DNA of 64,000 nucleotides from Bacteroidota bacterium (GTDB taxonomy: Bacteria; Bacteroidota; Ignavibacteria; UBA10030; UBA6906): positions 3,697 through 67,696 of the forward strand of contig JBJXHC010000038.1 in NCBI GenBank assembly GCA_046160825.1, in the 5' to 3' direction. Of this stretch, positions 34,675 to 61,954 are shown one piece after another. The position numbers were made by a program, and so were the translations under genes. A model generated the notes under the pieces. That model was given only the letters and a program-made list of their open reading frames with translations. It was not told the origin of the DNA and did not search any database. Within the stretch, counting starts at the first letter, position 1, and every line of letters begins with the position of its first letter.

Positions 34675-34682
34675 GGCGAGTC

Positions 34683-39795: not shown

Positions 39796-41457
39796 TCATT
39801 TCATCATTGGCACGTTCACACCCTGGCTCTTCGCATTCTCAATCGCACGTTCATACCCTGCATCAGCATGACGGATAATTCCCATTCCCGGATCGTACGT
39901 GAGCACATGCTGTAATCTTGCTTCTGCTTCCTTGGTGCCATCAGCAACCACAACCATTCCCGCGTGGATGGAAAGTCCCATACCAACACCACCACCGTGA
40001 TGCACGCTTACCCAGCTTGCTCCACCGACTGCATTGAGCAACGCATTCAGGATGGGCCAATCGGCAATGGCGTCGCTGCCGTCTTTCATTTTCTCGGTCT
40101 CGCGGTTCGGTGAAGCGACAGAGCCACAATCCAAGTGATCGCGTCCGATGACAATCGGCGCTTTCACTTCTCCTCGTGCAACAAGGTCATTGAATATCTT
40201 CCCCATCTTTGCTCGCTCACCGTAGCCGAGCCAGCAAATCCGCGCCGGTAATCCCTGGAAGTGTATCTGCCTCTGCGCCTTCTCTATCCAGCGGCACAGC
40301 GGCTTGTTCTCCGGAAACGTCTCGAGAATAGCCCGGTCGGTTCGATAAATATCATCCGGCTCACCGGACAATGCCGCCCAACGGAATGGCCCTTTTCCAT
40401 CACAGAATAACGGTCGAATATACTCCGGCACAAAGCCAGGAATATCAAAAGCATTGGTCAAACCGTTTGCCAGCGCCTCACCGCGGATATTGTTGCCGTA
40501 ATCGAACGTTATTGCGCCCCTTTTCTGTAGGCCCAGCATAGCCTGTACATGTTCAACGATGGACGCCTGTGCAAGTTGCATGTACTTCTTCGGATCTGAT
40601 TTGCGGAGGGCAAGCGCTGCCTCATATGAAATGTGGGCGGGGACGTAACCGTTCAGCGTATCATGCGCCGATGTTTGATCGGTGAGAATATCAATCTTGA
40701 TGTTGCGAGCAAGAAGCTCCGGCAACACCTCGGCAGCATTCGCAAGCAGAGCAACGGACTTGGCTTCCTTGAGTTCTTTGGCGGTTTGCAAAATGAGCAA
40801 CGCTTCATCGAGTGATGTTGCCATCTCATCGACGTATCCGCTCTTGAGTCTCTTCTCGATGCGTGAGCGATCGACTTCAATAGCGAGACATGCTGCACCG
40901 TTCATCGTTGCGGCGAGAGGTTGCGCGCCTCCCATGCCCCCAAGTCCGGCGGTGACGAGGAGTCTGCCAGCAAGGCTCCCCCCATAATATTTCTCCGCAC
41001 ATGCAGCAAACGTTTCGTATGTCCCTTGGAGAATCCCTTGTGTGCCGATGTAAATCCAGCTCCCCGCGGTCATCTGACCGTACATCGTAAGGCCGAGAGC
41101 TTCGAGCCGACGGAACTCATACCCCGTCGCCCATTTGGGGACGAGCATACTGTTGGAGATGAGGACACGAGGAGCGTTCTCGTGCGTTTTGAAAATACCA
41201 ACGGGCTTACCGGATTGTACGAGCAGCGTCTCATCGTTTTCCAGGCTCTTTAAGCTGCGCACGATTGCATCGTAGCATTCCCAATTGCGTGCCGCTTTGC
41301 CGACGCCGCCGTAGACAATCAACTCATCTGGCTTTTCTGCAACGTCGGGATCAAGATTATTCATCAGCATACGTAGCGCTGCTTCCTGTATCCAGCCTTT
41401 GCAGGAGAGGGTGGTACCGTGGGGGGCTTTGATATTTGTCTTAGCTACGTCAAGCAT
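39796..41457 (-). CDS. hutU: Urocanate hydratase
   Basis: [23 protein letters not shown] and the rest of the sequence are HutU-like. The track ORF start (41517) was trimmed to Met 41457 because the extension [20 protein letters not shown] is a translated REP hairpin. Confidence 0.9.
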
Positions 41458-41482
41458 GAGCAATGCTCCATTGATTTCCTTT

Positions 41483-41552
41483 GACTTGCCACGAGCTTCA
41501 GCTCGTGGATATTTCAAATGCCAAAATATACCAGAGGGCTTTAGCCAAATCC
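41483..41552. repeat. REP-like repeat, left copy (palindrome 41489-41508)
   Basis: The repeat sits in the hutU 5' leader and abuts the tnpA stop. Confidence 0.7.
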
Positions 41553-41563
41553 ATAAGGGGTCT

Positions 41564-42001
41564 CTAGCCCTTCCTCAAAGCGGTGAATCCATACTCTTTC
41601 AGAAATTCATCATATTCCTCTGCGAACGACTTCTTCCGGTGGTGTTCTTCCTGATTCTTGATATACTCCCTCACGATATCAATCGTCGAATCGCTTACTG
41701 ATACTGCAATATACTCATCTTGCCACTCAAGCTTCGTGGGCATGAGTTGTTGTTGATTGAACCAATGTGATGATTCTCCTTTGAGAAGCTGAGCCACCTT
41801 GGCAATGGACTGATCCGCTCCAAGAGAAATCAAGGAGTGAATATGCTCGATATGTCCATTGATGAAGTCGAGATAAATCCCTTTTGCACGGGCGTTCTCT
41901 CTGATATGTGTGAACAACTGCAATCTGATCTCTTTGCTTAAAAGCGGCTCCCGGTTTTTTATTGACCAGATCAGATGAATCCAGATTCTGAGATATGGCA
42001 T
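41564..42001 (-). CDS. tnpA: IS200/IS605-family Y1 (HuH) transposase, REP-associated tyrosine transposase-like
   Basis: It is 145 aa with a HuH motif (HIHSLISL), LLKGESSHW, a Tyr region ([11 protein letters not shown]) and [11 protein letters not shown], matching the TnpA_IS200 (PF01797) pattern. There is no tnpB partner. Confidence 0.85.
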
Positions 42002-47236: not shown

Positions 47237-47428
47237 ATGCCGCAAAGCGGATCGCAGGGAAATAACAAGGTTGGTACCGCAATACACATCAAAGAAGTCA
47301 AACGGATGCTCATCGAGACCATCCCGCAGAGTTTTCGTGGTAACAAGACTGAGTCGGCCAACATCCTCGGCTTCAGCCTGAAAACTCTCCATACCAAAAT
47401 CCAGCAATACCAGATCAAGTCGAATTGA
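47237..47428 (+). CDS. Stand-alone Fis-type helix-turn-helix protein (63 aa)
   Basis: The C-terminal 45 aa (IKEVKRMLIETIPQSFRGNKTESANILGFSLKTLHTKIQQYQI) match the HTH_8/Fis family pattern (GNKTxAAxLLGISRKTLYRKLKxYGI). An in-frame stop lies 12 codons upstream, so this is not a truncated larger regulator. Confidence 0.5.
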   Translation: MPQSGSQGNNKVGTAIHIKEVKRMLIETIPQSFRGNKTESANILGFSLKTLHTKIQQYQIKSN

Positions 47429-48498
47429 GCACCCGGGCAGTTGCTTTCGCCACACTCCCCACTCCCGTTCGCCAATCGTCAATCACTCTTCTCTACCTCG
47501 TCGTCGCGCTGATCATCTTTGCGATGTGGGTGTGGAGTGCGGAAACAGTTCACACATCACTCAATGGTGATCCCCGGTCAAAACTCTCCGATTTGATTCA
47601 CGGTCGGGCACACAATCCCTTTGTACAGCGAGCGCTTGTTCCACTTTTGACTCGAGCCGTTCATCAGATCCTGCCGGCCACCTTGACGGGTGATTTAGAA
47701 CTTTATCTCTTCTCTATCCCAAAAGTCAAGAAGGAAATGTTGCGACTCGGCTGGGAAGAAGAATACTTTGTCGAGTCCCTCGTTGCACTTTCGTGGGCGT
47801 TTATTGCCTTGGCGGCGTTTCCGTTCGCTGTTCAGGCCCTGTGGAAGGCCATCTACTCCACATCGGAATTCGTGACAGCCATGGTTCCAGTGATTGCACT
47901 TCTCTCCCTGCCGCCATTCTTTCATGTAGGAACCCATTATGTGTATGATTTCCCATCATTGTTTCTCTTTACTGCCGTGCTTGTCTGCGTTGTCCGACGG
48001 GCTTGGTGGCTGAGTTATATTCCGTTCTTACTTGGTTGTTTGAACAAGGAAACAATCATCTTTGCTTCGTTGACCGGCATTATTCTGTACTGGCATGACC
48101 GTGAGAGGACCAGAATGGCGCGGCATGTGGCCGTGCAATTCTTGTTGTTCATCGTGGTCAAACTAATGTTGATGCAAGTCTTTTCGGGCAACCCAGGAAC
48201 CTCCGCCGAGTTTGCGCTGTACGCGAATATTCACCAACTCCTCCTGGGTTATGATGCAGTCCCACTCACCATGACGGCGACGCTGGTTGGGTTGATCGGC
48301 TACCGGTTCCGCACGAAACCTGTAGTGCTTCAAAAACTATTGTGGTTGGCCCTGCCGTTTTTTCTCTTACTGATGTTGTTCGGTCGCATCGGCGAGTTGA
48401 GGGTGATGTATGAGATCGTTCCGGTTGTGCTCTTTCTCATTCTTCACACTCTGTTCTTCGACGTATTCAAGTTCCGGTATGCGCCGGTTGAACCTTGA
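47425..48498 (+). CDS. Polytopic integral membrane protein of unknown function
   Basis: It is 357 aa with about 8-9 hydrophobic helices. An ATGA overlap joins it to the Fis-like gene. Confidence 0.6.
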   Translation: MSTRAVAFATLPTPVRQSSITLLYLVVALIIFAMWVWSAETVHTSLNGDPRSKLSDLIHGRAHNPFVQRALVPLLTRAVHQILPATLTGDLELYLFSIPKVKKEMLRLGWEEEYFVESLVALSWAFIALAAFPFAVQALWKAIYSTSEFVTAMVPVIALLSLPPFFHVGTHYVYDFPSLFLFTAVLVCVVRRAWWLSYIPFLLGCLNKETIIFASLTGIILYWHDRERTRMARHVAVQFLLFIVVKLMLMQVFSGNPGTSAEFALYANIHQLLLGYDAVPLTMTATLVGLIGYRFRTKPVVLQKLLWLALPFFLLLMLFGRIGELRVMYEIVPVVLFLILHTLFFDVFKFRYAPVEP

Positions 48499-48521: not shown

Positions 48522-49325
48522 ATGATCATACATATTTCGGCCCTCGATCTTCCGGAGCTTCGACCGTACCGCACACTGCGGAGACACCAGCAACACAAGG
48601 ACGATGGCATTTTTGTTACCGAAGGTGAGAAGGTCGTGCGACGCCTGCTTGCCTCCGATCTTCGGATCGTTTCCATTCTTGTAACACCCGAATGGCTGGC
48701 AGCTCTTTTTCCACCGGGATCTGAACCGACCTGCACCGTGTATGTGGCCGAGAAGCCTCTCCTTGATACCATTGCCGGCTTCCGGCTTCATCAGGGAATC
48801 ATGGCCGTGGGGAAACTTCCGGAAGAGAGACCGCTCGATGATGTGCTCGCTTCACTCCGCACGCCATTATTGATTGTGGCTCTGGATGGACTGATGAACG
48901 CCGAGAATGTGGGTGTGGTGGTGCGGAACTGCGCTGCATTCGGTGTGCAGGTTATTCTCGTTGGCCAGACATCGTGCAGTCCGTATTTGCGACGGGCAGT
49001 GCGTAACTCGGTGGGTGCGGCGTTCAAGATACCAATTGTTCACGTGAACGATCTTGCCGATGCCCTGTCACGAGTCAAGCAACGAACGAAAGCACGCATC
49101 GTTGCAACATCCCTGCATCAGAGCATATCGATCCATCAAGCCAAATTCACAGATGATCTCTGTCTGGTATTGGGAAATGAAGAAACAGGCGTCGCTTCGG
49201 ATGTTCTTGCCGTGTGCGATGAACGGGTGGCCATTCCCATGTTAAATGACACGGATTCGCTCAATGTTGCCAGCGCAAGTGCAGCGTTCCTCTATGAGGT
49301 ACAGCGCCAGCGGTCGCAGACTTAA
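48522..49325 (+). CDS. TrmH/SpoU-family RNA 2'-O-methyltransferase
   Basis: It has a SPOUT C-terminal domain (LVLGNEETGV, NVASASAAFLYE). Confidence 0.85.
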   Translation: MIIHISALDLPELRPYRTLRRHQQHKDDGIFVTEGEKVVRRLLASDLRIVSILVTPEWLAALFPPGSEPTCTVYVAEKPLLDTIAGFRLHQGIMAVGKLPEERPLDDVLASLRTPLLIVALDGLMNAENVGVVVRNCAAFGVQVILVGQTSCSPYLRRAVRNSVGAAFKIPIVHVNDLADALSRVKQRTKARIVATSLHQSISIHQAKFTDDLCLVLGNEETGVASDVLAVCDERVAIPMLNDTDSLNVASASAAFLYEVQRQRSQT

Positions 49326-50725
49326 GACTCTCTTCCATTCGCAATCATCCCCATCCCCCACACTAACGCTGAGACCAGCAGTCCTGGAAACATTGGTTCA
49401 ATCCCCAGAGGATACTGATGCGAACTGCCCGCGGCCTGCGTCCATCCGGACAACAGCCACACTGTTGATGTGAGCCAGCCGAGGAGCATGGCTGCAAAGC
49501 AATACCCCGCCGCGACTTTCCAACGTTCGAAGTAGCTTGCCAGTACCGGCAGGAGCAATCCGGGAACTACTACGGTGCCGATGACGTACCATTGCCGGAT
49601 TACCGACGGGACAAAAACGCAAAGCAGTATCGAGAACAATGCAGTTGCGAGCATCGACCAGCGGATGTACTGTGCATCATTTATTCCATCGCGGTCTCTG
49701 TGGCTGCGCCAGAGAATATCACGGCCAAGTGATGTTGCTGAAACAAATGTGAGTGTATTGAGCGTCGACATAATTGTGGCAAGCATGCCGATGTAGAATA
49801 ACCCTTTAGCCACAGGAGGAAGCGTCACTTCCGCAAGCAACGGAAATGCCATCATCGGCTGCTCGAGTGCAGGAAGAGCTGCACGTGCATACAGTCCTGC
49901 CGTTGCGGTCATAGCGTCGAACAAAAACCAGAACAATATGGAAACGAGAATGCCCTTCTGCGCCACTTCGCCCGACTTTGCGGCAGAGCAGCGTTGATGA
50001 AATGCCGGATCAATCAACGTCCAGAGTGCGATCAGGAACCAGACAAGGACGAACTGCATGGAGTTGCCACCGTTCCAGGTAAGGTGGAGTGCAGGGATGT
50101 TCGCCGTGATAAATTCCATTCCGCCAAACTTCTGATACGCGAATGGAATGATAACACTGAACCCGAGGAACATCAGCACAAACTCCAGAACATCCGTATT
50201 CACGTCCGCGCGGAACCCGCCAAAGAAGAGATAAACAGTGGAGACAGCTGTTCCTATAAAGATGCAGAGTAATATTCCCCACCCGGTGACGAGGTGCATT
50301 AACATTCCGAGCATGAGAATGTATGGGGCGGGAGTAGTGAGAATGAACGTCAGCGCGCCGCCAAGCATCGCTGTACGGCGATCATACGCACGCTCAAGCT
50401 GATCCGGAATTGTGGTGAGGTTGGTTGCCCGGATTTTCTTTGCGAGGAAGAGTGCGAAGAGCAACGCAAACACATAGTAGGGAATGCCCTGTACAACCCA
50501 ATTGGAAATCCCATAGAGATAGGAGAATTCGCCCACGCCCAGTATTCCACCATACCACGTGGAGACAAGCGTCATGACAAACAACGGAAGAGTAAGCGAA
50601 CGTCCGGCGAGAAGGAACTCGGCCGCATCGCTTGGCTTCCTTTTGGTAAGGAAGCCGATAGCCAGCACAGCGATAAAATACAACGCTATGAGAGCCAGGT
50701 CCACCGGAGAAAGTGTGACATTCAA
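49322..50725 (-). CDS. Sodium:solute symporter (SSS) family transporter
   Basis: It is 467 aa with about 13 TM helices, and SSS-like with GGxxA motifs. It is convergent (a 4-nt overlap) with the TrmH gene and co-directional with the downstream thiN gene. Confidence 0.8.
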   Translation of the reverse strand: MNVTLSPVDLALIALYFIAVLAIGFLTKRKPSDAAEFLLAGRSLTLPLFVMTLVSTWYGGILGVGEFSYLYGISNWVVQGIPYYVFALLFALFLAKKIRATNLTTIPDQLERAYDRRTAMLGGALTFILTTPAPYILMLGMLMHLVTGWGILLCIFIGTAVSTVYLFFGGFRADVNTDVLEFVLMFLGFSVIIPFAYQKFGGMEFITANIPALHLTWNGGNSMQFVLVWFLIALWTLIDPAFHQRCSAAKSGEVAQKGILVSILFWFLFDAMTATAGLYARAALPALEQPMMAFPLLAEVTLPPVAKGLFYIGMLATIMSTLNTLTFVSATSLGRDILWRSHRDRDGINDAQYIRWSMLATALFSILLCVFVPSVIRQWYVIGTVVVPGLLLPVLASYFERWKVAAGYCFAAMLLGWLTSTVWLLSGWTQAAGSSHQYPLGIEPMFPGLLVSALVWGMGMIANGRES

Positions 50726-51354
50726 CTGCGTTTCGCCTTCCGGGAATCAAGTATCAACACGAGCATGTTGCCTTTCCCTACACTCACTTTGAAGGGCGAG
50801 CGAACAGCGACATTTGAAACCCCGATCTCACCAACGGTCATCCGCGCATTTGTAAGCGGGTATTTCAATCCGCTCAATGTTATTCCGGAACAAGACCCGA
50901 ATGGAATGAGGCTTACCGTCGCCCCGCGAGCGACCCGGCGTATGAGCTTTCGTTGTATGGGGAACGCCTGCCATCCATCACCAGCTACGGTGATATTTAT
51001 TTTCCCGGCATACTTCCACAGAACCGAGAGATTGCCAAGAGTAAAATCGAGTCGGCGACCGGTCGCGGCGACGATCACGACATTCTTCACCCGCGGGGAG
51101 AGAATGTCCAATGCCTTTTCAAGATCCGTATTGTCCTGCCGCTTCACGTGAATGATAAGAGAAGATGCAAAGTGTTTTCGGGTTGAGGCGCGCAACGAAT
51201 CGAGGTCGCCGATGATAATATCCGGACGCACGCCTGAGACTCGTGCAGAGTTCGCTCCGCCATCCGCGGCAACAATCAGATCCGCCGCACGGGCATGACG
51301 ACGAAGCAAAGTGCGGGATGGGGGTTCACCGTTACAGATTACGAGTGCTTTCAT
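50722..51354 (-). CDS. thiN: Thiamine pyrophosphokinase
   Basis: ALVICNGEPP, IVAADGGAN, IIGDLDSL and RQDNTDLEKAL are the TPK catalytic-domain motifs. The start was trimmed to the MKALVICNG Met. Confidence 0.8.
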   Translation of the reverse strand: MKALVICNGEPPSRTLLRRHARAADLIVAADGGANSARVSGVRPDIIIGDLDSLRASTRKHFASSLIIHVKRQDNTDLEKALDILSPRVKNVVIVAATGRRLDFTLGNLSVLWKYAGKINITVAGDGWQAFPIQRKLIRRVARGATVSLIPFGSCSGITLSGLKYPLTNARMTVGEIGVSNVAVRSPFKVSVGKGNMLVLILDSRKAKRS

Positions 51355-51361
51355 TGCATTC

Positions 51362-53782
51362 TCAAAGATGAATAGAAAGATTGAAGAACATGTTTCTTTC
51401 TGCCCCAACAAAAAACTGATCACCTTCGCCGTAGGCGGCATAAAGTCTATCAGAGAGATTATTTACCTGTAGCTTCGCCTCAATATTGACATCATCAAAA
51501 AGATCCTCCATTGTATACGCAATCCATCCATCACTCACGAAATATGCGTCGACGGTGTTCGTTTCATTCTTGAAGTTATCTGTATACTGTTTGCCGACAA
51601 ATCTTCCCGCAAGAGACACCGCCACATTTTCATATCGATACGTCACTCGCAGGTTTGCAAGAACATCCGGAAATCCGGCGATCGGATTATTATTCAGACT
51701 GAGCGGACTGTCCGATGAAAAATCCGTGTGCCTGACAAATGAGTTCCGACTGAATGTTGCATTGCCGCGAAGCTCAAGTGACGGAGCGGGTTTATAGGTG
51801 CCCGTGAGTTCAATGCCGATATGTCGCGTGCGGGATGCATTTCCAGTGATAGGCTGACCAAACCGATCCACTTGGCCGCTTTTCACAATTTCATTCGTAA
51901 ACTCCATCCAATACACGTTTGCCGTTGTGCTCACCTCTGGTGCGGAAAACCCGCCGCCAAATTCTATATCAAGTAGCCGCTCCGGTTTCACCAATGGTTG
52001 GTCAAAACTGAATTGACCATTTGCATCAACGGCAAACTGCGGAACAATCGCTCCCCATGATGCGGGGGTGCTCGCTTCCGCCGCATCATACAGGTTCTTC
52101 AACCGCGGTTCGCGGGAGGTGTAAGCAAGGCTGAGATAGGTGTTCCACTTCTCATCAAGATTGTAGTTGATGCCAATCCGGGGATTCAGGAAATGGTATG
52201 GAACCGCAAAGTTCGTATTCAAGAATTTCTCGTCGTGGAGACGGTAACAATTAAAGACGTACTGCAAATTCACCATGAGGTTGAGATCAGGCTGAAGAGA
52301 GTAAAGTTCGTGGGCGTAGAACGAGATAATGTCCTTTGCTCCTTTGTACTCGTAATAACGATAGTCCTCGGGAATGGAGACTGGGCTCATATCAACGCGC
52401 TGAAGTCTTCCCCAGTGGAGCGACCGGTGGAAACGCACCTCGGCACCGGCGATGAATTCCCCATCGTCGTGCTTCAGAGTTATCCTTGGCAACCAGCCGA
52501 ATTGTTTGTTTTTCACTGTTGCGCGAATCAGCGCACTGCCAAAGTACAGGGTATCGGGATCACCAACAATACTGAACCCGTTTCCCTGCGTGAGTCGATA
52601 ATACGAGAACGGTGCCCACGTTCCATCATAGTCGAAAAATCCGTCGCCAAGGATGATGAATGCTGTATTATTCAATGTCAGCGTAGGGGTCAAGCGCCAC
52701 TCATGTAGCAACTCATAATGGGGCTGGGAGAAATTCTCCATTTCCTCTTCGCGAAGGATTGGATTTGTGCGCCGCTTTGATTTGTCCTTCACGTCCAACT
52801 TGGGAATCCCATAGTAGGCAAGATGGTCGGAAATCGGTCCGCCATAGAAGTTCACCTGTGTCGTCATGCTTTCATCGTAGCGAATCGCACCGAAAAAATA
52901 ACTATTGAAATCAACCCAGGATCGGTCACGGTAGCCGCTGCTCAGAATCTTGGAAAGCCGACCGTGTAGCGCGTAGCGATTCTCGATCAGCCCGGAGCTG
53001 AACGACGCGGAGTATTTTCGAGTGTTAAAGCTGCCAACGCCCGCCGATAGGCTGAGCTCTCTCTTCCGCCCAAAGCTTGAGGTCACAAGATTGACAGAAC
53101 CGCCGATGGCCGGAGATCCATAGAAGGCACTCCCCGCTCCCCGCTGTACCTGTATATCCTCCAGACTCCCGGCAATGTCGGGGATATCCAACCAATAAAC
53201 ATTGTGATCTTCAGGATCGTTCTGAGGAATACCGTTAACCATCACGGCAATACGGCGTGCATCAAAACCGCGGATATTCAGATATGTATAGCCAATGCCA
53301 TTGCCCGCATCGGAGTAGTACGTTGTCGAGGGAAGTTCGGAGAGAAGGACAGGAATATCCTGCGTTGTGTATTGATCTCGTATATCCGTCCTGCTGAGTG
53401 TGGAGAATGTGACCGGTGTTTCGCGCTCACGACCTCGTGTACCACTTACCGTAATCGGCTGACCCGTAATCATGGTTGGTTCAAGCGTGAAGTCGATGGA
53501 TACGCCTTCCGTCGTCACGTCAACTCGTTTGGTTCTTGCAGCATAACCCACGAATGACACCCGGATTTCATACGCACCGGGAAGAACACCATCAATGCGG
53601 AATTCACCGGTGGCGTCTGAGAACGCGCCAAGCTGTGTACCGATAACGGTAACGTTTGCTCCGGGAAGGAGATTTGATGTGGCGGCCTCACGCACTTTGC
53701 CGGCGATGAATGCTGGTGTTTGTGCGAACGACAGAGGCGCGGCAAACAACAGAATGATCAGAATAGCAGAGAACCGATTCAT
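51362..53782 (-). CDS. TonB-dependent outer-membrane receptor (with an N-terminal carboxypeptidase-regulatory-like domain)
   Basis: It has a signal peptide, a plug and a 22-strand barrel, and ends in the terminal aromatic NLSIHL. It is 806 aa. It lies directly downstream of a TPP riboswitch. Confidence 0.9.
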   Translation of the reverse strand: MNRFSAILIILLFAAPLSFAQTPAFIAGKVREAATSNLLPGANVTVIGTQLGAFSDATGEFRIDGVLPGAYEIRVSFVGYAARTKRVDVTTEGVSIDFTLEPTMITGQPITVSGTRGRERETPVTFSTLSRTDIRDQYTTQDIPVLLSELPSTTYYSDAGNGIGYTYLNIRGFDARRIAVMVNGIPQNDPEDHNVYWLDIPDIAGSLEDIQVQRGAGSAFYGSPAIGGSVNLVTSSFGRKRELSLSAGVGSFNTRKYSASFSSGLIENRYALHGRLSKILSSGYRDRSWVDFNSYFFGAIRYDESMTTQVNFYGGPISDHLAYYGIPKLDVKDKSKRRTNPILREEEMENFSQPHYELLHEWRLTPTLTLNNTAFIILGDGFFDYDGTWAPFSYYRLTQGNGFSIVGDPDTLYFGSALIRATVKNKQFGWLPRITLKHDDGEFIAGAEVRFHRSLHWGRLQRVDMSPVSIPEDYRYYEYKGAKDIISFYAHELYSLQPDLNLMVNLQYVFNCYRLHDEKFLNTNFAVPYHFLNPRIGINYNLDEKWNTYLSLAYTSREPRLKNLYDAAEASTPASWGAIVPQFAVDANGQFSFDQPLVKPERLLDIEFGGGFSAPEVSTTANVYWMEFTNEIVKSGQVDRFGQPITGNASRTRHIGIELTGTYKPAPSLELRGNATFSRNSFVRHTDFSSDSPLSLNNNPIAGFPDVLANLRVTYRYENVAVSLAGRFVGKQYTDNFKNETNTVDAYFVSDGWIAYTMEDLFDDVNIEAKLQVNNLSDRLYAAYGEGDQFFVGAERNMFFNLSIHL

Positions 53783-53800
53783 AACTCTTCTTCCTCACTA

Positions 53801-53833
53801 AATAAAAAAGCCGTTCTCATGAGAGAAACGGCT
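53801..53833 (-). terminator. Riboswitch expression-platform intrinsic terminator (hairpin GCCGUUUCUCUC/GAGAACGGC followed by UUUUUUAUUU), 18 nt before the receptor start codon
   Basis: The minus-strand reading is AGCCGTTTCTCTCATGAGAACGGCTTTTTTATTT. A purine-rich RBS (GAGGAAGAAGAG) follows. Confidence 0.65.
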
Positions 53834-53863
53834 GAAGAAAAAGAGCGGGAACAATTCAGGTTG

Positions 53864-53948
53864 CCGTTTCCCTACGCTGGTATGGTCCAGATCAGGTTCT
53901 TAGGGTGTGATCTCAGTCCCACGTTTATTGGTGGGACACCCCTAACGG
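53864..53948 (-). promoter_or_regulatory. TPP (thiamine pyrophosphate) riboswitch aptamer (THI element)
   Basis: The minus-strand RNA reads CCGUUAGGGGUGUCCCACCAAUAAACGUGGGACUGAGAUCACACCCUAAGAACCUGAUCUGGACCAUACCAGCGUAGGGAAACGG. The conserved CUGAGA and ACCUGAUCUGGA..ACCAGCGUAGGGAA elements are present. The P1 helix is CCGUU/AACGG. Confidence 0.85.
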
Positions 53949-54002
53949 ATTTCGTAAGCAATATACCGACTCCGTGGTCGTATTGCAACCACGGATGAGG
54001 GT

Positions 54003-55412
54003 TCAGTACAAAGATTCTATCCTAAAGGCCCGGTACAGATTATATCCGGGGTTATCGACGGCGACTTCCCATTGCACAACTCCCGCGCTGTTCACTTCGA
54101 CGACGCGTTGGGCTGAGCCGAAACAAACCACGGTGTTGTCGTTCTCTAGTCGTTGTGCGAATCCCATGATGTTGCCGAAGAGCGAGGGCGAATGGCGATA
54201 TTCCCACACCATTTCTGCCACCATCGTTGACTCGTTGAGACGATACTCCACAGCGCGACTGACCGGCGGTGAATGTAAATTCCCATTGTCGAACAGGATG
54301 ATGTTACCGTTCGGCAAACGACGGATACCGTGTTGATGCGAGAATCCGTTGAGCGGATCGTTGACGAACGTGAACTGGTTGTTCTCGCCTCCCAGCCGCC
54401 AGATGATCTCACCTGTCTGCACGCTAATCTTGGTGATCTCGTCCATGTTCCTGAAGGATACCAGCAGGTTCCCGTCGTTGTCAACATCAATTGCATTGGA
54501 ATGCCACGGATTGACGTTCACACCCGTGATGCTGATATCAGAGACCGCATCGGTAATCTGGAGATGGTCGAATGTATTCCAGAAGAAATTGGGTTGGCCG
54601 TTTCTGATATATTCGATGGTCATTCCACGCACAATGGCGTTTGCCTGTCCACCGATGGCGGTCAGACTCGAATCCCTGTACTCAGCACCATAAAGACAAT
54701 GCGCACCGCCGTACAACCGCAGCTCATGTGCCCCTGTTTCTTCTCCTTGAAGAGTGGAGTATTGACCGAGAACATTCCCCAAGCGATCCAACTCGTAGAA
54801 AGCAAGATCGCTATCAATATTCGAGAAGACAGTGTACGTACCGGGGAATTGTTGCTGGAAGTCAATGACTGCACCAAGGAATTCTTTGTACCAGACAATG
54901 TGCCCGAGGTTGTCAAGAATCACCGCCGCATTCCATTGTCCCGCACCTGCGCCGGAAACGCCGATCATGACGTAGCCAGGCGTGGGCGACTGACTCCCGA
55001 TCAATGTAAAGTCAGGAAGGTTGTCAGGCAAAGGGTCTGTTGCAAAGAAAGTCTGGTCGCCGGTTGCCGTCTCGCCGCTGGCAGCCCATGCTTTCGCTCG
55101 AAGCTGGTACGTTTGATCCGGTCTGAGTCCAAGAACTGGCACCTCGGCAACTGAATCAACAACCGCAACGGAAGCGGTTTCGGATGTTGCGAGGGAATCA
55201 TTCCAGTATTCAATAGACACTGAAGCGGCATTTGCAGTACGTACGATAACCTTCGCGCTGAGGACGTTGTGCTCATTGGGCTGCACGACGAGAGAAATCA
55301 CACTGGGCGGTGGCCCCGCTTGTGGCGGTCCTTCCGGATTTTCGGAACAACCGGCAACCAATGCAACCGCGAATATGAGAGCATACAGAATGATTCCAAG
55401 CATTGATTTCAT
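54003..55412 (-). CDS. Beta-propeller lipoprotein, arylsulfotransferase (ASST)-like
   Basis: The lipobox is LVAGCSEN. Repeated propeller blades and the motif NNQFTFVNDPLNGFSHQHGIRRLPNGNIILFDNGN resemble ASST-family proteins. The family assignment is tentative. Confidence 0.45.
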   Translation of the reverse strand: MKSMLGIILYALIFAVALVAGCSENPEGPPQAGPPPSVISLVVQPNEHNVLSAKVIVRTANAASVSIEYWNDSLATSETASVAVVDSVAEVPVLGLRPDQTYQLRAKAWAASGETATGDQTFFATDPLPDNLPDFTLIGSQSPTPGYVMIGVSGAGAGQWNAAVILDNLGHIVWYKEFLGAVIDFQQQFPGTYTVFSNIDSDLAFYELDRLGNVLGQYSTLQGEETGAHELRLYGGAHCLYGAEYRDSSLTAIGGQANAIVRGMTIEYIRNGQPNFFWNTFDHLQITDAVSDISITGVNVNPWHSNAIDVDNDGNLLVSFRNMDEITKISVQTGEIIWRLGGENNQFTFVNDPLNGFSHQHGIRRLPNGNIILFDNGNLHSPPVSRAVEYRLNESTMVAEMVWEYRHSPSLFGNIMGFAQRLENDNTVVCFGSAQRVVEVNSAGVVQWEVAVDNPGYNLYRAFRIESLY

Positions 55413-55486: not shown

Positions 55487-56857
55487 CTACTGATGCAGAG
55501 ACTTGAGGTTTGCCATAAGTTGTTCTGCTCTGCTCCAGTCCAGCGTTTCCACGGTGGTAATGGTGGAGCAGAGTTCTTCCAGAATCGCCTCCTGGACCTT
55601 TCCACGTGAGAGCGCCACTGCATACGGAATCCGATGGAATGTCACCATCGAGTATTTGGGGATGAACTTCCCCGGGAACCTCTGATGAAGTGCCTGTTCG
55701 ATTTTTTTCTTCAATAGAAATTTGGGCTGTGCGACCAGATCCCTCATCTCAACAAAATTCTCGACAGCCAGATCGGCGATAGCATCAGTATTGATCTTTC
55801 GTGCCCGCTCATATTCCCCAAACACCGATTCCCACCACTCTTCTCCGATCTCCGTCTCCAATTTCTTGCCAATGATTTCATTCAGGTATGTGCAATCTTC
55901 GAACGCACAGTTCATGCCCTGACCGAAGAACGGGACGATGGCATGGGCTGCATCGCCGAGCAGCGCCATCCTGCCACCGACATGCCATGGAGAGCATTTG
56001 ATAGTTACCATCGTCCCGGTGGGGTTGGCGAAAAACTGATCGACAAAGTCGGGCATGAGAGCAACGGCATCGGGAAAGTGTTCGTGGAAGAATGCTTCCA
56101 CTCGTCCCGGGGTATTCAAGGTCTTAAAACTTATCGCTCCTTCATGCGGGAAGAAGAATGTACACGTGAAGCTTCCATCAATATTCGGAAGAGCGATCAA
56201 CATGAATGTACCGCGTGGCCAAATATGCAACGCGTGTTTTTCGAGCAACCACGCTCCCATTGGGCCAGCCGGAATGGCAAGTTCTTTATGGCCGTACTCA
56301 AGGTATTGTTGGGATGAATTGAATTGGGGGAGTTCCTCCATTGCGGTGCGCAACGCCGAGGCCGAGCCATCCGTTCCAATCACCGTACCGGCTTGATCAG
56401 TGATATGTTCCCCACTTGTTTCATCGATCAGCTCGAGTTCTCCGCTTGCAAGATTCATTCCTGTACACTTGCGGTTGAAATGCAGTTTGACGTTGGGCAA
56501 CCGTTCTGCAGCATCCATTAACGCCATATTCAGTTGGCTGCGCGAAGTCGCGTAGATTACCTCTGTGTCATCCTTGCCGTATCGCTGAAACGTCAACTCA
56601 CCAGACACTGCGTGCATCATTCTTCCCTTCATCGGGATGGCGATTTTCATGACCTGTTCAAGAACTCCGACTTCCTTCAGCGCATGGATCCCGCGGGTGG
56701 ATAAGGCAAGATTGATGGAGCGGCCGCCGCCGATGCTGACCTTCCGCATGTCCGGTCGCCGCTCATACACATCAACGTCAAAACCGCGTCTTGCCAGATA
56801 GATCGAGAGTAGCGAGCCTGCCAGTCCGGCTCCTACAAGTGACACACGTTTGTTCAT
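55487..56857 (-). CDS. kmo: Kynurenine 3-monooxygenase
   Basis: It is a FAD monooxygenase (VSLVGAGLAGSLLSIYLARRG; GDAAHAIVPFFGQGMN) with the KMO-typical length and a C-terminal extension. Confidence 0.85.
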   Translation of the reverse strand: MNKRVSLVGAGLAGSLLSIYLARRGFDVDVYERRPDMRKVSIGGGRSINLALSTRGIHALKEVGVLEQVMKIAIPMKGRMMHAVSGELTFQRYGKDDTEVIYATSRSQLNMALMDAAERLPNVKLHFNRKCTGMNLASGELELIDETSGEHITDQAGTVIGTDGSASALRTAMEELPQFNSSQQYLEYGHKELAIPAGPMGAWLLEKHALHIWPRGTFMLIALPNIDGSFTCTFFFPHEGAISFKTLNTPGRVEAFFHEHFPDAVALMPDFVDQFFANPTGTMVTIKCSPWHVGGRMALLGDAAHAIVPFFGQGMNCAFEDCTYLNEIIGKKLETEIGEEWWESVFGEYERARKINTDAIADLAVENFVEMRDLVAQPKFLLKKKIEQALHQRFPGKFIPKYSMVTFHRIPYAVALSRGKVQEAILEELCSTITTVETLDWSRAEQLMANLKSLHQ

Positions 56858-58125
56858 TCCATTTCTTTCCCGAGGATCTTCACAAATTCAAACACATCGC
56901 TGAACGTGTTATACAGTGGCACGGGAGCTACACGAATAACGTCCGGTTCGCGCCAATCGCAGATAACACCCTGCCGTGTCAACGATTCAAAAACCACCCG
57001 ACCCTTTTGGCCGATCTGTAGGGAGAGCTGGCAACCACGCTGGGACTGATCGGATGGAGTGAGAATCGAAACGCCGGGTAACGCCCTCAGGAGAAACTCC
57101 AGGTATCCCGTCAGCTTCTCACTTTTTGCTCTGAGCATTGTCATACCGGCCTCATCAAAGATTTCCATCGAGGAACGCAACGCTGCCAGCGGAAGAATTG
57201 ACGGATTGCTCAGTTGCCAACTCTCCGCCCCCGGTATCGGATCAAACTCAGCGAGCATCTGAAAACGTGTGCTCTTGTTGTGTCCCCACCAACCGGAGAA
57301 CCTGGGAAGATCAAATGATCGGGCATGGCGTTCATGAACAAAGCACCCGGCGGTGCTGCCCGGACCGGCATTCAAGTATTTATATGAACACCAGACCGCG
57401 AAGTCCACACCCCAGTCATGGAGATGAAGCGGGATATTCCCGGCAGCGTGAGCAAGATCGAATGCGACGATACAACCTTTGGTCTGAGCTGACTTCGTGA
57501 TGCGCTCCATATCAAACACCTGACCCGTGTAATAGTTGACACCGCCGAGAAGAATGAGCGCAGTCGCCTCTCCCTCGATCTCAAGCATCTCCTCAATGTC
57601 TTCGATGCGAAGGGTTGTCTCTCCTGGTCGTGGGGAAAGCTCAACCAGTGAACGCTCCGGATCGAATCCATGGAACTTGATCTGGGATTTCACCGCGTAT
57701 TGATCGGAGGGAAACGCCTGTTGTTCAATAATGATTTTATGACGCAGTATGGTCGGACGATAAAACGATACCATCATCAGATGGAGGTTGACGGTGAGGG
57801 TGTTCATTACCACAACTTCCGAAGGCAATGCGCCGACAAGCCGCGCTGTTTGCTCGGTCAACAATTCGTGGTATGGCATCCAGGGATTCTTCGCGTGAAA
57901 GTGCCCCTCGACGCCAAGTCTGGCCCAATCCTCCAACTCCTGTTGAACGTACGCGCTCGCAGTCTTTGGCTGAAGACCAAGCGAGTTGCCGCAAAGATAG
58001 ATTGCTTCCTTGCCGGCTTGCGTCTTTGGAATAAAGAATCGGTTCCGATATGGTCCAAGCTGATCTGTCGAATCCGATTCAACCGCAAACTGCTTGTCCG
58101 TCTTAAATGACATCAACTGTTCCAT
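56854..58125 (-). CDS. kynU: Kynureninase
   Basis: It is a class-V fold protein with CSYKYLNAGPGSTAGCFVH (PLP-Lys region), about 420 aa. A 4-nt overlap joins it to kmo. Confidence 0.9.
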   Translation of the reverse strand: MEQLMSFKTDKQFAVESDSTDQLGPYRNRFFIPKTQAGKEAIYLCGNSLGLQPKTASAYVQQELEDWARLGVEGHFHAKNPWMPYHELLTEQTARLVGALPSEVVVMNTLTVNLHLMMVSFYRPTILRHKIIIEQQAFPSDQYAVKSQIKFHGFDPERSLVELSPRPGETTLRIEDIEEMLEIEGEATALILLGGVNYYTGQVFDMERITKSAQTKGCIVAFDLAHAAGNIPLHLHDWGVDFAVWCSYKYLNAGPGSTAGCFVHERHARSFDLPRFSGWWGHNKSTRFQMLAEFDPIPGAESWQLSNPSILPLAALRSSMEIFDEAGMTMLRAKSEKLTGYLEFLLRALPGVSILTPSDQSQRGCQLSLQIGQKGRVVFESLTRQGVICDWREPDVIRVAPVPLYNTFSDVFEFVKILGKEME

Positions 58126-58132
58126 TGCTTTT

Positions 58133-58169
58133 GACTAACGACTCTACAGACTCTCAACTCTATAGACTG
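58133..58169. repeat. Intergenic 9-bp tandem-repeat element (copy R0; units ACTCTACAG / ACTCTATAG)
   Basis: GACTAACGACTCTACAGACTCTCAACTCTATAGACTG lies between the dinB stop and the kynU start. It is in the reverse orientation relative to the R1 left arm. Confidence 0.6.
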
Positions 58170-58174
58170 ATTTG

Positions 58175-59392
58175 TTATTCATCAAAATCAAAATCCTCCG
58201 GCGAGGGGATATTGGTGAAAGCAATACGCGTCGGGGCTGCTGCCTGCAATGCGTGCATACCACCGAAATGCAGCAGATGGCCCCCGTATTTCGTGTTGAG
58301 TTTGTCCATCGCCTCCGAGAGTCGCGTGCGCTTCACTTCGTCAGAAAATAACGAGAAGTTATGCGCCGAGTCATGGACGAGGTCGAACAGCGTCACGCCG
58401 ACTGCCAGCAGCTTGCCTTGCGGCAGATTCTTCCAGAGTTTCTGCAGGGCTTCGAGGAGCGTGAGTGTATCCTGACTTTCAACGAATGAAATATGATCCG
58501 TCCAGGATGTGCGGTTCATGAATTTCACGTCCACCCTCAAGTGCGATGCCCAATAGTGCATGCGCCGGAGTCGCGCGGCGGCCTTGTGCAAGAGTTGCTG
58601 TGCGATGGCAAATGCATCCGTTGGCGTTCTCATCTTCGGAGGCAGGACATGCGAATGCCCGACGGTTCGACGACGCGTCAGGGTCTCCGTGAGATCTTCA
58701 CCACGCAACCAGTACCAATATCGCTCGCCGATAATCCCCTGCCAGATATTCTTCATCTCAGGCTTTGAGAGATTCAGTAATTGCTCGGCTGTCACTATCC
58801 CCCTCTGAGCAAGCCGTTTCTCCATATTCGCGCCAATGCCGGGGAAATCACGTGTCTTCAAAGGATACAATTTCTGCGGCAGGTCAGCCTGAGTAATGAC
58901 AACGAGGCCATCCGGCTTCTGCATGTCACTCGCCACCTTTGCAAGGAACCTGTTGGTCGCAATTCCAACCGAACAGCGCAACATTTCACCGACATCAGCA
59001 TAGATCGTCTGCTTGATCTTGGCCGCCAATGCGACGGCCTTCTCGACTTCGCGCTGGCTGCCTGTGAGTTGACATGCCATTTCATCGATGGACAGCACCG
59101 CTGCAACGGGTACGCAAGATTCAACGGCGGTGACAATCCTTGTGTGATACTCGACGTACTTCGCATGTCGAGCTTCGACAAGCAGGAGGCCGGGACACAT
59201 CTTCTTCGCATCACCAACGCGTGTGCCTGTCTTCACGCCAAATGCCTTGGCTTCATAGCTTGCAGCGATACAAAACGTCGTGTCTGCTATCAGCGGAACG
59301 ACGGCAACCGGCTTCCCCCGAAGCTCGGAACGCAGTTGCTGCTCGACAGAAGCAAAATAAGAATTGAGATCGACAAGAAGCCAGCGAACCAA
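58175..59392 (-). CDS. dinB: Y-family DNA polymerase (DNA polymerase IV-like)
   Basis: LLVDLNSYFASVEQ, SIDE and the thumb/little-finger organisation are present. It is 405 aa. The start codon is TTG as given in the track. Confidence 0.8.
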   Translation of the reverse strand: MVRWLLVDLNSYFASVEQQLRSELRGKPVAVVPLIADTTFCIAASYEAKAFGVKTGTRVGDAKKMCPGLLLVEARHAKYVEYHTRIVTAVESCVPVAAVLSIDEMACQLTGSQREVEKAVALAAKIKQTIYADVGEMLRCSVGIATNRFLAKVASDMQKPDGLVVITQADLPQKLYPLKTRDFPGIGANMEKRLAQRGIVTAEQLLNLSKPEMKNIWQGIIGERYWYWLRGEDLTETLTRRRTVGHSHVLPPKMRTPTDAFAIAQQLLHKAAARLRRMHYWASHLRVDVKFMNRTSWTDHISFVESQDTLTLLEALQKLWKNLPQGKLLAVGVTLFDLVHDSAHNFSLFSDEVKRTRLSEAMDKLNTKYGGHLLHFGGMHALQAAAPTRIAFTNIPSPEDFDFDE

Positions 59393-59413
59393 ATCATCCT
59401 CGGATAACTCAAA

Positions 59414-59522
59414 TGGAGTTTGTGGAGTCTGTAGAGTCTGTAGAGTTCATAGAGTTTATGGAGTTTCGGGGTGTCTCTATAGAACTCTATGAACCCCACG
59501 AACTCTCCAGACTCTATAAACT
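59414..59522. repeat. Intergenic tandem-repeat element (copy R1): six forward 9-mers (GTYYRTRGA) followed by an inverted arm, overall palindromic
   Basis: TGGAGTTTGTGGAGTCTGTAGAGTCTGTAGAGTTCATAGAGTTTATGGAGTTT...CTCTATAGAACTCTATGAACCCCACGAACTCTCCAGACTCTATAAACTG lies between the dinB start and the ACMSD stop, which it overlaps. Confidence 0.65.
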
Positions 59523-60512
59523 GCTCTTTCCCAGCCACTCCAACGCCGTCCCACGCAACAATTGCTCTTGTGTTTTCTTATCGAAGCCCAGCGATTCAAT
59601 CAACTTTCCCGGCTCTTGCTCACCGAGCGGGAAAGGATAATCAGAACCGAGAGCTATGCGATTCGCGCCGACAAGCTCAATGAGATACTTGAGCATCGCA
59701 GCATCGTGCGTGAGTGAATCAACGAAGAAGCGGCCGAGGTACTTGCGCGGGTTGACCGGGTTATCAATGGCGACAAGATCAGGACGGACATCAAAGCCGT
59801 GTTCAATGCGGCCGAGCGTTCCGGGAAATGCGCCGCCACCGTGAGCAAATGCAACTCGCAGTTTTGGCAGACGCTCGAACACGCCGCCGAAGATCATTGA
59901 ACAAATGGCAAGCGAGACTTCCGCGGGCATACCAACGAGCCATGGAAGCCAGTACTTCGGCATGCGCTCCTTGCCCATCATATCCCACGGATGGACGAAT
60001 ACGGCCGCTCCCAATTCCTCCGCTGCCTGGAAGACCGGGAACAGATTCGGATCATTCAGGTTCCAGTCGTTCACGTGCGTACCGATTTCTATTCCGGCAA
60101 GACCGAGTTGCTTGACGCAACGCTCCAGTTCTTTGATCGCCAGATCGGGCGACTGCATGGGCACGATACCGAGTCCGGCGAACCGCTGTGGATACGCGGA
60201 AACAACCGACGCGATATGATCGTTGAGAAGCTTGCAGAGATCGTGTGCGTCATTCGGCTTTGCCCAATAACAAAACATCACCGGCACTGTAGAAAGCACT
60301 TGCATCTGCACATCGTGTTGGTCGCATACGCCAATCCGCACCTCCGGACTCCAGAGATTTTCCTCCACGTCGCGGAAGTGCTTCCCATCGATCACCATTC
60401 TCGCACAGCCCGGTTTGTGATGTTCGAGGTTCACAAAGCCGCCATAGCCGTACTTCGCCTTAAAGTCCGGCAGGACCTTGGGAAGAATGTGTGTGTGGAT
60501 GTCGATTTTCAT
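59514..60512 (-). CDS. 2-amino-3-carboxymuconate-6-semialdehyde decarboxylase-like amidohydrolase
   Basis: The amidohydrolase-2 fold begins MKIDIHTHILP and carries HPWDMMG and FAHGGGAFP. The start was trimmed to the MKIDIHTH Met. Confidence 0.8.
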   Translation of the reverse strand: MKIDIHTHILPKVLPDFKAKYGYGGFVNLEHHKPGCARMVIDGKHFRDVEENLWSPEVRIGVCDQHDVQMQVLSTVPVMFCYWAKPNDAHDLCKLLNDHIASVVSAYPQRFAGLGIVPMQSPDLAIKELERCVKQLGLAGIEIGTHVNDWNLNDPNLFPVFQAAEELGAAVFVHPWDMMGKERMPKYWLPWLVGMPAEVSLAICSMIFGGVFERLPKLRVAFAHGGGAFPGTLGRIEHGFDVRPDLVAIDNPVNPRKYLGRFFVDSLTHDAAMLKYLIELVGANRIALGSDYPFPLGEQEPGKLIESLGFDKKTQEQLLRGTALEWLGKSSL

Positions 60513-60520
60513 TCTGTCAT

Positions 60521-61048
60521 TCACACCGGCTTCTGCGGCCTCTCCATCTTCGTCCCGCACTTCTTGCACGTGCAATGCTCTGCGTTGTTGTAGAACTTGT
60601 CGAAGATCGGCGGAAGCTGGGTGACGAGGTTTGTCACTTGCAGGAACTCCTCATACAACTTGTCGCCACACTTCTCGCAGAACCACAAGAAGCCATCAGT
60701 CTCACCGGGCGTCCGCTGGCGCTCAATCACGAGTCCCACTGTATTGGCAGGACGCTGCGGCGAATGCGGCGTCTTCGGAGGCAGAAGGAATATCTCTCCC
60801 TCACGAATCTTGATGTCCCTCGGCTTTCCATCCTCTACAATCTTGACCGTGATATCTCCTTCGACCTGATAGAAGAACTCCTCACCCTCGTCGTAGTGGT
60901 AATCCTTGCGCGCATTGGGTCCACCAACAACCATGACGATGAAGTCGGAATCCTCATACACCATCTTGTTGCCGACGGGGGGTTTCAATAAATGCCGGTG
61001 GTCGTTAATCCATTGCTTAAAATTGATCGGAGGTAGGAGTTTTCCCAT
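60521..61048 (-). CDS. 3-hydroxyanthranilate 3,4-dioxygenase
   Basis: It has a cupin fold with the iron ligands (HYDEGEEFFYQVEGD ... LLPPKTPHSPQR) and a C-terminal rubredoxin-like Cys4 (CEKCG...CKKCG). Confidence 0.85.
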   Translation of the reverse strand: MGKLLPPINFKQWINDHRHLLKPPVGNKMVYEDSDFIVMVVGGPNARKDYHYDEGEEFFYQVEGDITVKIVEDGKPRDIKIREGEIFLLPPKTPHSPQRPANTVGLVIERQRTPGETDGFLWFCEKCGDKLYEEFLQVTNLVTQLPPIFDKFYNNAEHCTCKKCGTKMERPQKPV

Positions 61049-61062
61049 GTAAACCTCTGGCT

Positions 61063-61097
61063 TAGTTTATGGAGTTTGTGGAGTTCATATAGAGTTA
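61063..61097. repeat. Intergenic tandem-repeat element (copy R2, forward orientation)
   Basis: TAGTTTATGGAGTTTGTGGAGTTCATATAGAGTT lies between the HAAO start and the four-helix-bundle gene stop. Confidence 0.6.
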
Positions 61098-61460
61098 TGT
61101 GCTTCTGAGATACTTGATGAGTCCTGAGATCATTCGTGAGATTTCATTACAATCGGAATAGAGTTTATCAAACGATTCCTGCGTGATGTATCGCTGGTCC
61201 ATTGCAACATAGAGTGCGGCTTGGACTTCAGCAGTTGAGCCATGTGCCACGAAAAGGAACTGACTGAATTCTTTGTTCGTTCTTCGAGCAAAGCCTTCCG
61301 CAATGTTCAACATAATCGAAACCGAAGCTCTTCGAATCTGATCCCGCAATCCAAAGTCCTTGGTGAACTTGCCGTCCGCGGTAATCCTGTAGACCTCACC
61401 AACGAGTTCTCTTGCTTTCTGCCATGCAAGTATGTCGTCGAACCTCTCGAACTTCGCCAT
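61095..61460 (-). CDS. Four-helix-bundle protein (23S rRNA intervening-sequence-protein family, TIGR02436-like)
   Basis: It is 121 aa. MAKFERFDDILAWQKARELVGEVYRI is typical of the family. Confidence 0.7.
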   Translation of the reverse strand: MAKFERFDDILAWQKARELVGEVYRITADGKFTKDFGLRDQIRRASVSIMLNIAEGFARRTNKEFSQFLFVAHGSTAEVQAALYVAMDQRYITQESFDKLYSDCNEISRMISGLIKYLRST

Positions 61461-61505
61461 CCCAACTCCATAGACTCCACGAACTCTATGAACTCTAAAA
61501 CACTG
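61461..61505. repeat. Intergenic tandem-repeat element (copy R3, reverse orientation)
   Basis: CCCAACTCCATAGACTCCACGAACTCTATGAACTCTAAAACACTG lies between the four-helix-bundle gene start and the RidA stop. Confidence 0.6.
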
Positions 61506-61511
61506 TCTCCG

Positions 61512-61931: not shown

Positions 61932-61954
61932 TCGCTCTCGACCAACGGCTAATT

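Follow-up and report, generated by a model that had tools for sequence, protein, structure and literature searches.

A predicted operon for the uptake and activation of thiamine, repressed by a TPP riboswitch, in an Ignavibacteria-like bacterium of the Bacteroidota

Within a 64,000-nucleotide stretch of a Bacteroidota metagenome-assembled genome (MAG; GenBank assembly GCA_046160825.1, contig JBJXHC010000038.1, positions 3,697 to 67,696 of the forward strand; the whole stretch is called the window below), a thiamine pyrophosphate (TPP) riboswitch has been found on the minus strand, directly followed by three tightly packed genes that encode a TonB-dependent receptor (TBDR), a thiamine pyrophosphokinase (TPK, ThiN) and a sodium:solute symporter (SSS). 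We read this locus, at a probability of roughly 85%, as an operon through which an Ignavibacteria-like bacterium of the Bacteroidota takes up and activates thiamine, and which a TPP riboswitch represses. The combination of riboswitch, TBDR, SSS and TPK is already on record from Caldithrix abyssi (2017), and the finding is a sound annotation, not a discovery; its added value lies in the distribution of the module, in an expression platform that is putatively dual, and in a hypothesis on the binding site of a candidate thiamine importer that can be tested.

The leader RNA has been assigned by a search of the whole window against all 4227 Rfam families (cmscan, Rfam 15), in which the TPP riboswitch RF00059 is the sole match at gathering level. 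The aptamer, a THI element, occupies 53852-53953 of the minus strand and reaches 73.8 bits where the gathering score is 54.3 (E 1.1e-12), with a match that runs over the full model, 1 to 105. Its P1 helix pairs 53948-53944 with 53868-53864, and the only missing stem is P3a, which is optional. An initial annotation, made from the letters alone, had claimed the element on the strength of the motifs CUGAGA and ACCUGAUCUGGACCAUACCAGCGUAGGGAA and had named the RF00059 threshold as the check; both motifs are contained in the leader, and the threshold has been passed. Of the motifs that contact the ligand, the pyrimidine-sensor arm carries CUGAGA and the pyrophosphate-sensor arm ACCUGAUCUGG...CCAGCGUAGGGAA, and both have been found invariant in 26 orthologous leaders from related loci. 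Across these leaders 96.7% of the pair cells of helices P1-P5 are paired and compensatory changes occur in 8 pairs; the covariation score has been reached by none of 500 shuffles, while slid controls have been 33-60% paired. P1 taken alone shows little variation among the 26. From its sequence, the leader RNA is predicted to bind TPP and to control expression of the genes that follow.

Directly upstream of the aptamer lies a promoter-like site, TTGCAA-17 nt-TATATT (53960-53988, minus strand, 9/12 consensus matches), from which transcription would start at about the first aptamer base; it is a pattern match only, and the density of such sites in the region is not above that of shuffles. The gene directly upstream of the riboswitch encodes an ASST-type arylsulfotransferase-like protein with a lipoprotein-like N-terminus (54003-55412, minus strand). 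Its stop is followed by an 8-bp hairpin without a U-tract, UCCGUGGU/ACCACGGA (53995-53971), and the -35 hexamer of the promoter-like site falls within the loop of this hairpin.

Downstream of the aptamer, folding has confirmed an intrinsic terminator at 53800-53833 (minus strand), consisting of the hairpin AGCCGUUUCUC-UCAU-GAGAACGGCU (53833-53809, -13.4 kcal/mol) and the stretch UUUUUAUUU with its U6 tract (53808-53800). It ends 18 nt before the TBDR start codon at 53782, and it is missing from the list of a generic terminator scanner because the stem contains a bulged U. The 5' arm of the terminator has a second potential partner: the switching strand GGGAAACGGC (53863-53872, minus strand), which spans the 3' part of the pyrophosphate-sensor junction together with the 3' strand of P1, is fully complementary to GCCGUUUCUC (53832-53823) and forms with it a 10-bp duplex of -15.0 kcal/mol. 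Accordingly, GGGAAACGGC serves as the 5' half of an antiterminator, and GCCGUUUCUC doubles as terminator 5' arm and antiterminator 3' half. In a ligand-free transcript truncated just before the 3' arm of the terminator, the structure of minimum free energy (MFE) has the antiterminator in place of P1. The terminator-type platform proposed in the initial annotation is hence supported, as an OFF switch in which a downstream terminator and an antiterminator that uses the aptamer 3' strand exclude each other, and the same logic is seen in relatives, at least 12 of whose leaders have kept terminators with a GCCGUUUC-type 5' arm.

A further helix encloses the terminator. The tract CUCUUUUUCUUC (53845-53834, minus strand) is complementary to the purine-rich Shine-Dalgarno (SD) region GAGGAAGAAGAG (53796-53785), read from the sequence just ahead of the TBDR start codon (53782-53780), and the resulting outer anti-SD:SD helix of 13 bp reaches -16.3 kcal/mol. 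Outer helices of the same kind and of other sequence have been found in four related leaders (L001, L002, L004, L023) and in that of a Calditrichia MAG (L025), an indication that translation may be controlled alongside termination. In some relatives (L002, L013 and others) the U-tract is absent or the aptamer abuts the start codon, and the family therefore mixes transcriptional and translational control. One may consequently ask whether translation is the main target of the riboswitch, through sequestration of the SD region, and whether hairpin and U-tract add little as a terminator. No other element of the platform is as strong as the anti-SD:SD helix, which has been kept through sequence change in relatives, the leaders lacking a U-tract or a spacer before the start codon point in the same direction, and TPP riboswitches of Bacteroides have been reported in either mode (bioRxiv 10.1101/867226). 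Nevertheless, we regard a mainly translational switch as rather unlikely in the window, where a canonical hairpin is followed by six U's, where the antiterminator is precisely matched and has its 5' half inside the aptamer, and whose terminator/antiterminator design recurs in the dozen or more relatives mentioned; moreover, the two modes are not mutually exclusive.

The three genes under the riboswitch lie on the minus strand in the order riboswitch-TBDR-TPK-SSS. The TBDR gene (51362-53782, 806 aa) directly follows the riboswitch, as it does in each of the 39 TBDR-containing relatives whose upstream DNA is intact, and its product has a signal peptide, an N-terminal CarboxypepD_reg domain (PF13620), a Plug domain (PF07715, 67.6 bits) and a C-terminal beta-barrel of the 22-strand type (PF00593, 81.4 bits). 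Plug and barrel together identify a TonB-dependent receptor; among the NCBIfam equivalog models no cut-off has been reached, and the protein is presumed to be an outer-membrane thiamine gate of the OMthi/Omr type. The TPK gene (50722-51354, 210 aa) is recognized by the TIGR01378 equivalog model at 149.2 bits against a cutoff of 76.4, and both the catalytic and the B1-binding domain are present (PF04263, PF04265). TPK catalyses the reaction of thiamine and ATP to TPP and AMP. The SSS gene (49322-50725, 467 aa) scores 101.5 bits on PF00474, for which the cutoff is 22.8, and the operon is closed off at 49322-49325 by a convergent SpoU-type methyltransferase gene. The spacer between the TBDR stop and the TPK ATG amounts to 7 nt, and the TTG start of the SSS overlaps the TPK stop by 4 nt in the sequence TTGA. 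The gene calls of the initial annotation have withstood this analysis, namely an 806-aa receptor 18 nt beyond the terminator, a thiN gene, and an SSS gene overlapping the thiN stop; its spacer of 8 nt between receptor and thiN is to be corrected to 7. The NCBI annotation (PGAP) of the source MAG agrees on all three products and on their lengths (MFN0157478.1, MFN0157477.1 and MFN0157476.1), naming the first simply a TonB-dependent receptor and listing the TPK likewise with 210 aa. That the three genes form an operon is supported by the 7-nt spacer, the 4-nt overlap and the synteny in 66 related loci. Genes for thi biosynthesis have not been detected by Pfam in 49 of the 59 called open reading frames (ORFs) of the window (all of at least ~145 aa), an absence in 64 kb that says little about the whole genome and hence about the thiamine auxotrophy that the initial annotation had named as one prediction.

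Relatives of the locus have been collected with the window SSS as query and one genome per GTDB species, which has returned 67 loci, 66 of them real, with symporters of 39-81% identity from Ignavibacteriota, Calditrichota, Zixibacteria, Marinimicrobia, Cloacimonadota, Elusimicrobia and a few other groups. Their neighbours have been sought by tblastn with the proteins of the window, TPK and TBDR only. TPK stands immediately upstream of the SSS in 44 of the 66, and a TBDR flanks it, likewise in 44/66, as homologs of 30-80% identity in the same position. Aptamers have been located with a covariance model built from the 26 orthologous leaders (a simple regular expression for the TPP core misses 14 aptamers), and a TPP aptamer has been found upstream on the same strand in 40/66 loci. 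Every locus that has a TBDR and upstream DNA uncut by a contig end carries the riboswitch (39/39), and in the 40th (L013) the aptamer stands directly before TPK. The loci fall into three layouts: riboswitch-TBDR-TPK-SSS, found chiefly among Ignavibacteria and Calditrichia; riboswitch-TBDR-SSS, represented in Zixibacteria and other groups; and TPK-SSS without TBDR or riboswitch, in Marinimicrobia and Elusimicrobia. A rescan of twelve TBDR-less loci at the Rfam gathering threshold has detected neither a TPP nor any other riboswitch, so that control by the riboswitch goes with those versions of the operon that contain a TBDR, with the addition of L013. Variants have been observed among the riboswitch operons. 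A Zixibacteria MAG (L052) has two tandem TPP aptamers upstream of TBDR-SSS (4174-4274 and 4459-4571; 71 and 75 bits with the model from the 26 leaders), and a Calditrichia MAG (L025) has an ORF of the fatty-acid-hydroxylase/sterol-desaturase family (PF04116, 5235-6146) between TBDR and TPK.

The mechanism that we propose for the locus would run as follows. At low TPP the nascent leader would pair GGGAAACGGC with GCCGUUUCUC, the antiterminator would block formation of the terminator, and RNA polymerase would enter the operon. At high TPP the ligand would lock P1 and the pyrophosphate-sensor helix, freeing the downstream strand for the terminator with its U-tract, and transcription would halt before the TBDR gene; a transcript that has been read through may still fold the outer anti-SD:SD helix and hide its ribosome-binding site. 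When expressed, the TBDR would carry thiamine across the outer membrane and the SSS would co-transport it with Na+ across the inner membrane, where TPK would pyrophosphorylate it to TPP, which would both trap thiamine in the cell and yield the ligand that closes the switch.

No NCBIfam model reaches its cutoff on the SSS, the best being PanF with 96 bits against 328, and the protein is ~25% identical to PanF and OpuE (references from the supplement of PMC11452348). Membership in the SSS family proper (PF00474 / TC 2.A.21) is given by the HMM match, the LeuT fold and the Na2 site. On a neighbour-joining tree the window protein and the 52 placeable symporters of the related loci form one clade apart from PanF, PutP and OpuE, and thiamine-linked context is found in nearly every subclade, including the deepest; SAR11 ThiV appears on this rough tree as a long-branch neighbour of the clade. 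The SSS has been considered as an ortholog of ThiV and this has been ruled out: phmmer gives 12.9 bits, BLASTP gives no full-length alignment, the two fall into separate clades, and the residues of the substrate site differ. The ThiV/SSSP signature residues near SiaT positions 78, 139 and 254 (set from PMC11452348) are not those of the SSS. At the position of SiaT 139, ThiV, SSSP and SSSQ have Glu and 51/53 members of the SSS clade have Tyr, and at SiaT 254 the clade has Asp or Glu, not Phe or His, both positions being read from a low-identity alignment of uncertain register.

Within the clade alignment of 53 sequences, the presumptive substrate site is strongly conserved. The motif T56-W57-Y58-G59-G60 retains W in 50/53 and Y in 53/53, P82-Y83-Y84 is found in 53, 52 and 53 of the sequences, respectively, and the tyrosine of P132-A-P-Y135 in 51; residue 239 is always acidic (D in 40, E in 13), F242 is present throughout (53/53) and W379 in 49/53, and the Na2-site residues S320 and T321 occur in 47/53 and 46/53. 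An AlphaFold model of the SSS (pLDDT 82.8, pTM 0.85) superimposes on SLC5 structures with TM-scores of 0.71-0.83 and shows helix breaks at 56-60 and 239, which in the model are the unwound transmembrane helices TM1 and TM6 of the LeuT-fold substrate site. The nearest solved proteins by sequence are choline transporters, bacterial sfCHT with 61.9 bits and human CHT1 with 41 bits, and by fold human CHT1 has been ranked first in Foldseek (E 1.6e-12, TM-score 0.78), just ahead of SGLT2. In CHT1 the quaternary ammonium of choline is caged by W62, Y91, W141 and W254, with W406 nearby (PMC11589582; PMC13220886). According to the HMMER alignment, W57, Y84 and W379 of the SSS match W62, Y91 and W406, that is three of the five cage residues; the position of CHT W254 is taken by D239 (acidic in 53/53), and CHT W141 is not conserved, matching a non-aromatic residue. 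A CHT-type choline transporter (SLC5A7) has been rejected on this account, as the SSS does not have the five-residue aromatic cage. An aromatic-plus-acidic pocket of this kind, as judged from alignments at 17-25% identity, would be expected of a carrier for a bulkier organic cation, thiamine for example. The SSS is presumed to be a Na+-coupled inner-membrane thiamine importer of a distinct CHT-like clade. For the clade as a whole, we favour with moderate confidence an uncharacterised family of Na+-coupled thiamine importers, widespread in phyla of the FCB group (Ignavibacteriota, Calditrichota, Zixibacteria, Marinimicrobia, Cloacimonadota) and in Elusimicrobia, whose members are not ThiV orthologs, have choline transporters as their nearest kin, and would possess a remodelled aromatic cage with an added acidic residue for the thiazolium cation.

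Two other substrates have to be weighed. The operon could be thiamine-related while its SSS imports a precursor or breakdown product, such as hydroxymethylpyrimidine (HMP), amino-HMP or the thiazole, as has been proposed for SAR11 ThiV, itself a member of the SSS family linked to HMP uptake (PMC11452348). A related operon (L003) includes a TenA/THI-4-family gene between riboswitch and TBDR, as precursor traffic would suggest. We nevertheless consider precursor import improbable, since the SSS is no ThiV ortholog by the phmmer score given above and is without the acidic TM3 residue common to ThiV, SSSP and SSSQ, and since the partner that it has kept in 44/66 loci, often with overlapping codons, is TPK. 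TPK acts on intact thiamine. In addition, no ThiD, ThiE or ThiM has been found in the Pfam-scanned neighbouring ORFs, the tblastn across loci having sought only TPK and TBDR. That the SSS carries choline, another quaternary amine, pantothenate or proline and is merely co-transcribed, with no role in thiamine metabolism, would agree with its nearest solved homologs (sfCHT and, as top Foldseek match, human CHT1), with PanF as best NCBIfam model and with distant clade members outside any thiamine context, but it is very improbable given that only 3/5 cage residues of CHT are kept (W254 replaced by D/E, W141 not conserved), that the scores on all family models are far under their cutoffs, that linkage to TPK, TBDR or riboswitch extends through nearly every subclade down to the deepest, and that the riboswitch accompanies the TBDR in every one of the 39 loci where this could be checked.

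Several observations weigh against a thiamine-uptake operon switched by TPP. The substrates of both the SSS clade and the TBDR have been assigned from gene context. Six TPK-SSS loci without TBDR have no detectable TPP riboswitch, and about ten distant members of the clade (39-47% identity) have neighbours unrelated to thiamine. Furthermore, the operon of L003 contains the TenA-family gene, and the substrate range may therefore vary among lineages. Finally, the terminator is part of the full-length MFE structure irrespective of P1 enforcement (-59.7 vs -59.2 kcal/mol), from which we infer that the switch decision must be kinetic.

Two of these points can be described more closely. Nine symporters of the distant set (L026, L030, L033, L036, L040, L041, L054, L057 and L058), which belong to the same clade at 39-47% identity and have kept W57, Y58, Y84 and the acidic residue at 239, lie near neither TPK nor TBDR nor a TPP riboswitch; the genes around them are unrelated and code for an acyltransferase, a response regulator, a patatin-like protein and an amylase. 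The TenA/THI-4-family ORF of L003 (3101-4000) encodes 299 aa with an N-terminal extension of ~87 aa, and the operon is otherwise identical; the gene hints that some lineages move or salvage the pyrimidine moiety, possibly outside the cytoplasm.

Among known systems, the closest is that of Caldithrix abyssi (Cabys_3975-3977), in which a TPP riboswitch lies 163 nt upstream of a BT2390-like TBDR, accompanied by a sodium-solute symporter as well as by TPK, and which has been interpreted as serving thiamine transport in an organism predicted to be auxotrophic (Kublanov et al., 2017, PMC5317091). Any link of the window TBDR to BT2390 is thereby indirect, by way of what has been published on the Caldithrix homolog. 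That locus belongs to another phylum, Calditrichota as opposed to the Ignavibacteria-like Bacteroidota MAG studied here, and its likeness to the window is drawn from the published description of the Cabys proteins; two Calditrichia MAG loci of our own set (L025 and L038) have the layout of the window, their TBDRs being 47-51% and their SSS proteins 47% identical to those of the window. The Caldithrix paper (PMC5317091) mentions the locus briefly, and it gives no role for the symporter, no analysis of the expression platform and no survey of distribution. In Bacteroides thetaiotaomicron, OMthi (BT2390) and pnuT-tnr3 are regulated by riboswitches, and genetics has shown the importance of the two transporters when thiamine is scarce (Costliow and Degnan, 2017, PMC5613172). 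The window shares with that system a TPP riboswitch over an outer-membrane TBDR, an inner-membrane carrier and a thiamine pyrophosphokinase, and it differs in gene order, as TPK is placed between TBDR and carrier, and in the carrier itself, which is PnuT, a facilitator of the PnuC family, in Bacteroides and a presumably Na+-coupled SSS (PF00474) in the window. No Pnu-family gene has been found in the window operon by Pfam; it is not a member of the pnuT type, though the system works alike, and the analogy to OMthi-pnuT-tnr3 with another inner-membrane carrier, which had been drawn in the initial annotation, proves apt.

Outer-membrane receptors (omr, OMthi) and PanF-like symporters (thiV) under TPP riboswitches have been known since the comparative analysis of Rodionov (2002), which is cited for this in PMC2211319. 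ThiV (SAR11_0811) and the algal SSSP/SSSQ resemble the window protein as SSS carriers under a TPP riboswitch that are linked to uptake of thiamine or HMP; however, ThiV and SSSP are only remotely related to it, being of a separate clade with other residues in the substrate site, and ThiV clusters with salvage genes of the tenA or thiD type, whereas the clade of the window SSS clusters with TPK. With the choline transporters CHT1/SLC5A7 and sfCHT (PDB 8J74, 9BFI, 9RWS) the SSS has in common the T-W-x-G-G motif of the unwound TM1, and choline and thiamine are both organic cations, but the identity is only 17-25% and the genomic context in the window points to thiamine and not to choline. In the literature we have found no experiment on this SSS clade and no account of its separation from ThiV or of its CHT-like binding-site signature, and a search combining thiamine pyrophosphokinase, TPP riboswitch and symporter has yielded none.

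Elsewhere in the window, a kynurenine-pathway cluster occupies 55487-63427 of the minus strand and comprises genes for a KMO-like FAD monooxygenase (55487-56857), a kynureninase (56854-58125), an ACMSD-like amidohydrolase (59514-60575), a 3-hydroxyanthranilate 3,4-dioxygenase (60521-61048) and an aldehyde dehydrogenase (61985-63427), with a DinB/Pol IV-like gene inserted at 58175-59392. The cluster suggests a route from tryptophan to quinolinate or tryptophan catabolism, uncommon in bacteria. An IS200/Y1-type transposase gene (41564-42001, minus strand) adjoins genes of histidine utilisation, among them urocanase (39796-41517) and an imidazolonepropionase-like amidohydrolase (35721-36965), and formiminotransferase and cyclodeaminase are encoded by two separate genes (34042-35705). 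Between an adenosine deaminase gene and the SpoU methyltransferase gene that converges on the thiamine operon lies a gene on the plus strand (47425-48498) for a predicted multi-pass membrane protein of 357 aa with no Pfam match.

The understanding of TPP riboswitches or of thiamine salvage is left unchanged by these findings. What they provide is a secure functional annotation for three genes that have been named only generically in public records, and the recognition of riboswitch-TBDR-(TPK)-SSS as a recurrent thiamine acquisition module across several poorly cultured phyla. Environmental surveys of vitamin B1 follow genes of the thiB, thiT, thiV, omr1 and pnuT type (e.g., PMC10881298, PMC12442306), and a separate, probably thiamine-importing SSS clade would escape such marker sets. 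If its proposed function is true, this SSS family would be a missing inner-membrane partner of the Omr/OMthi receptors in environmental bacteria, as yet uncounted by current vitamin-B1 gene surveys.

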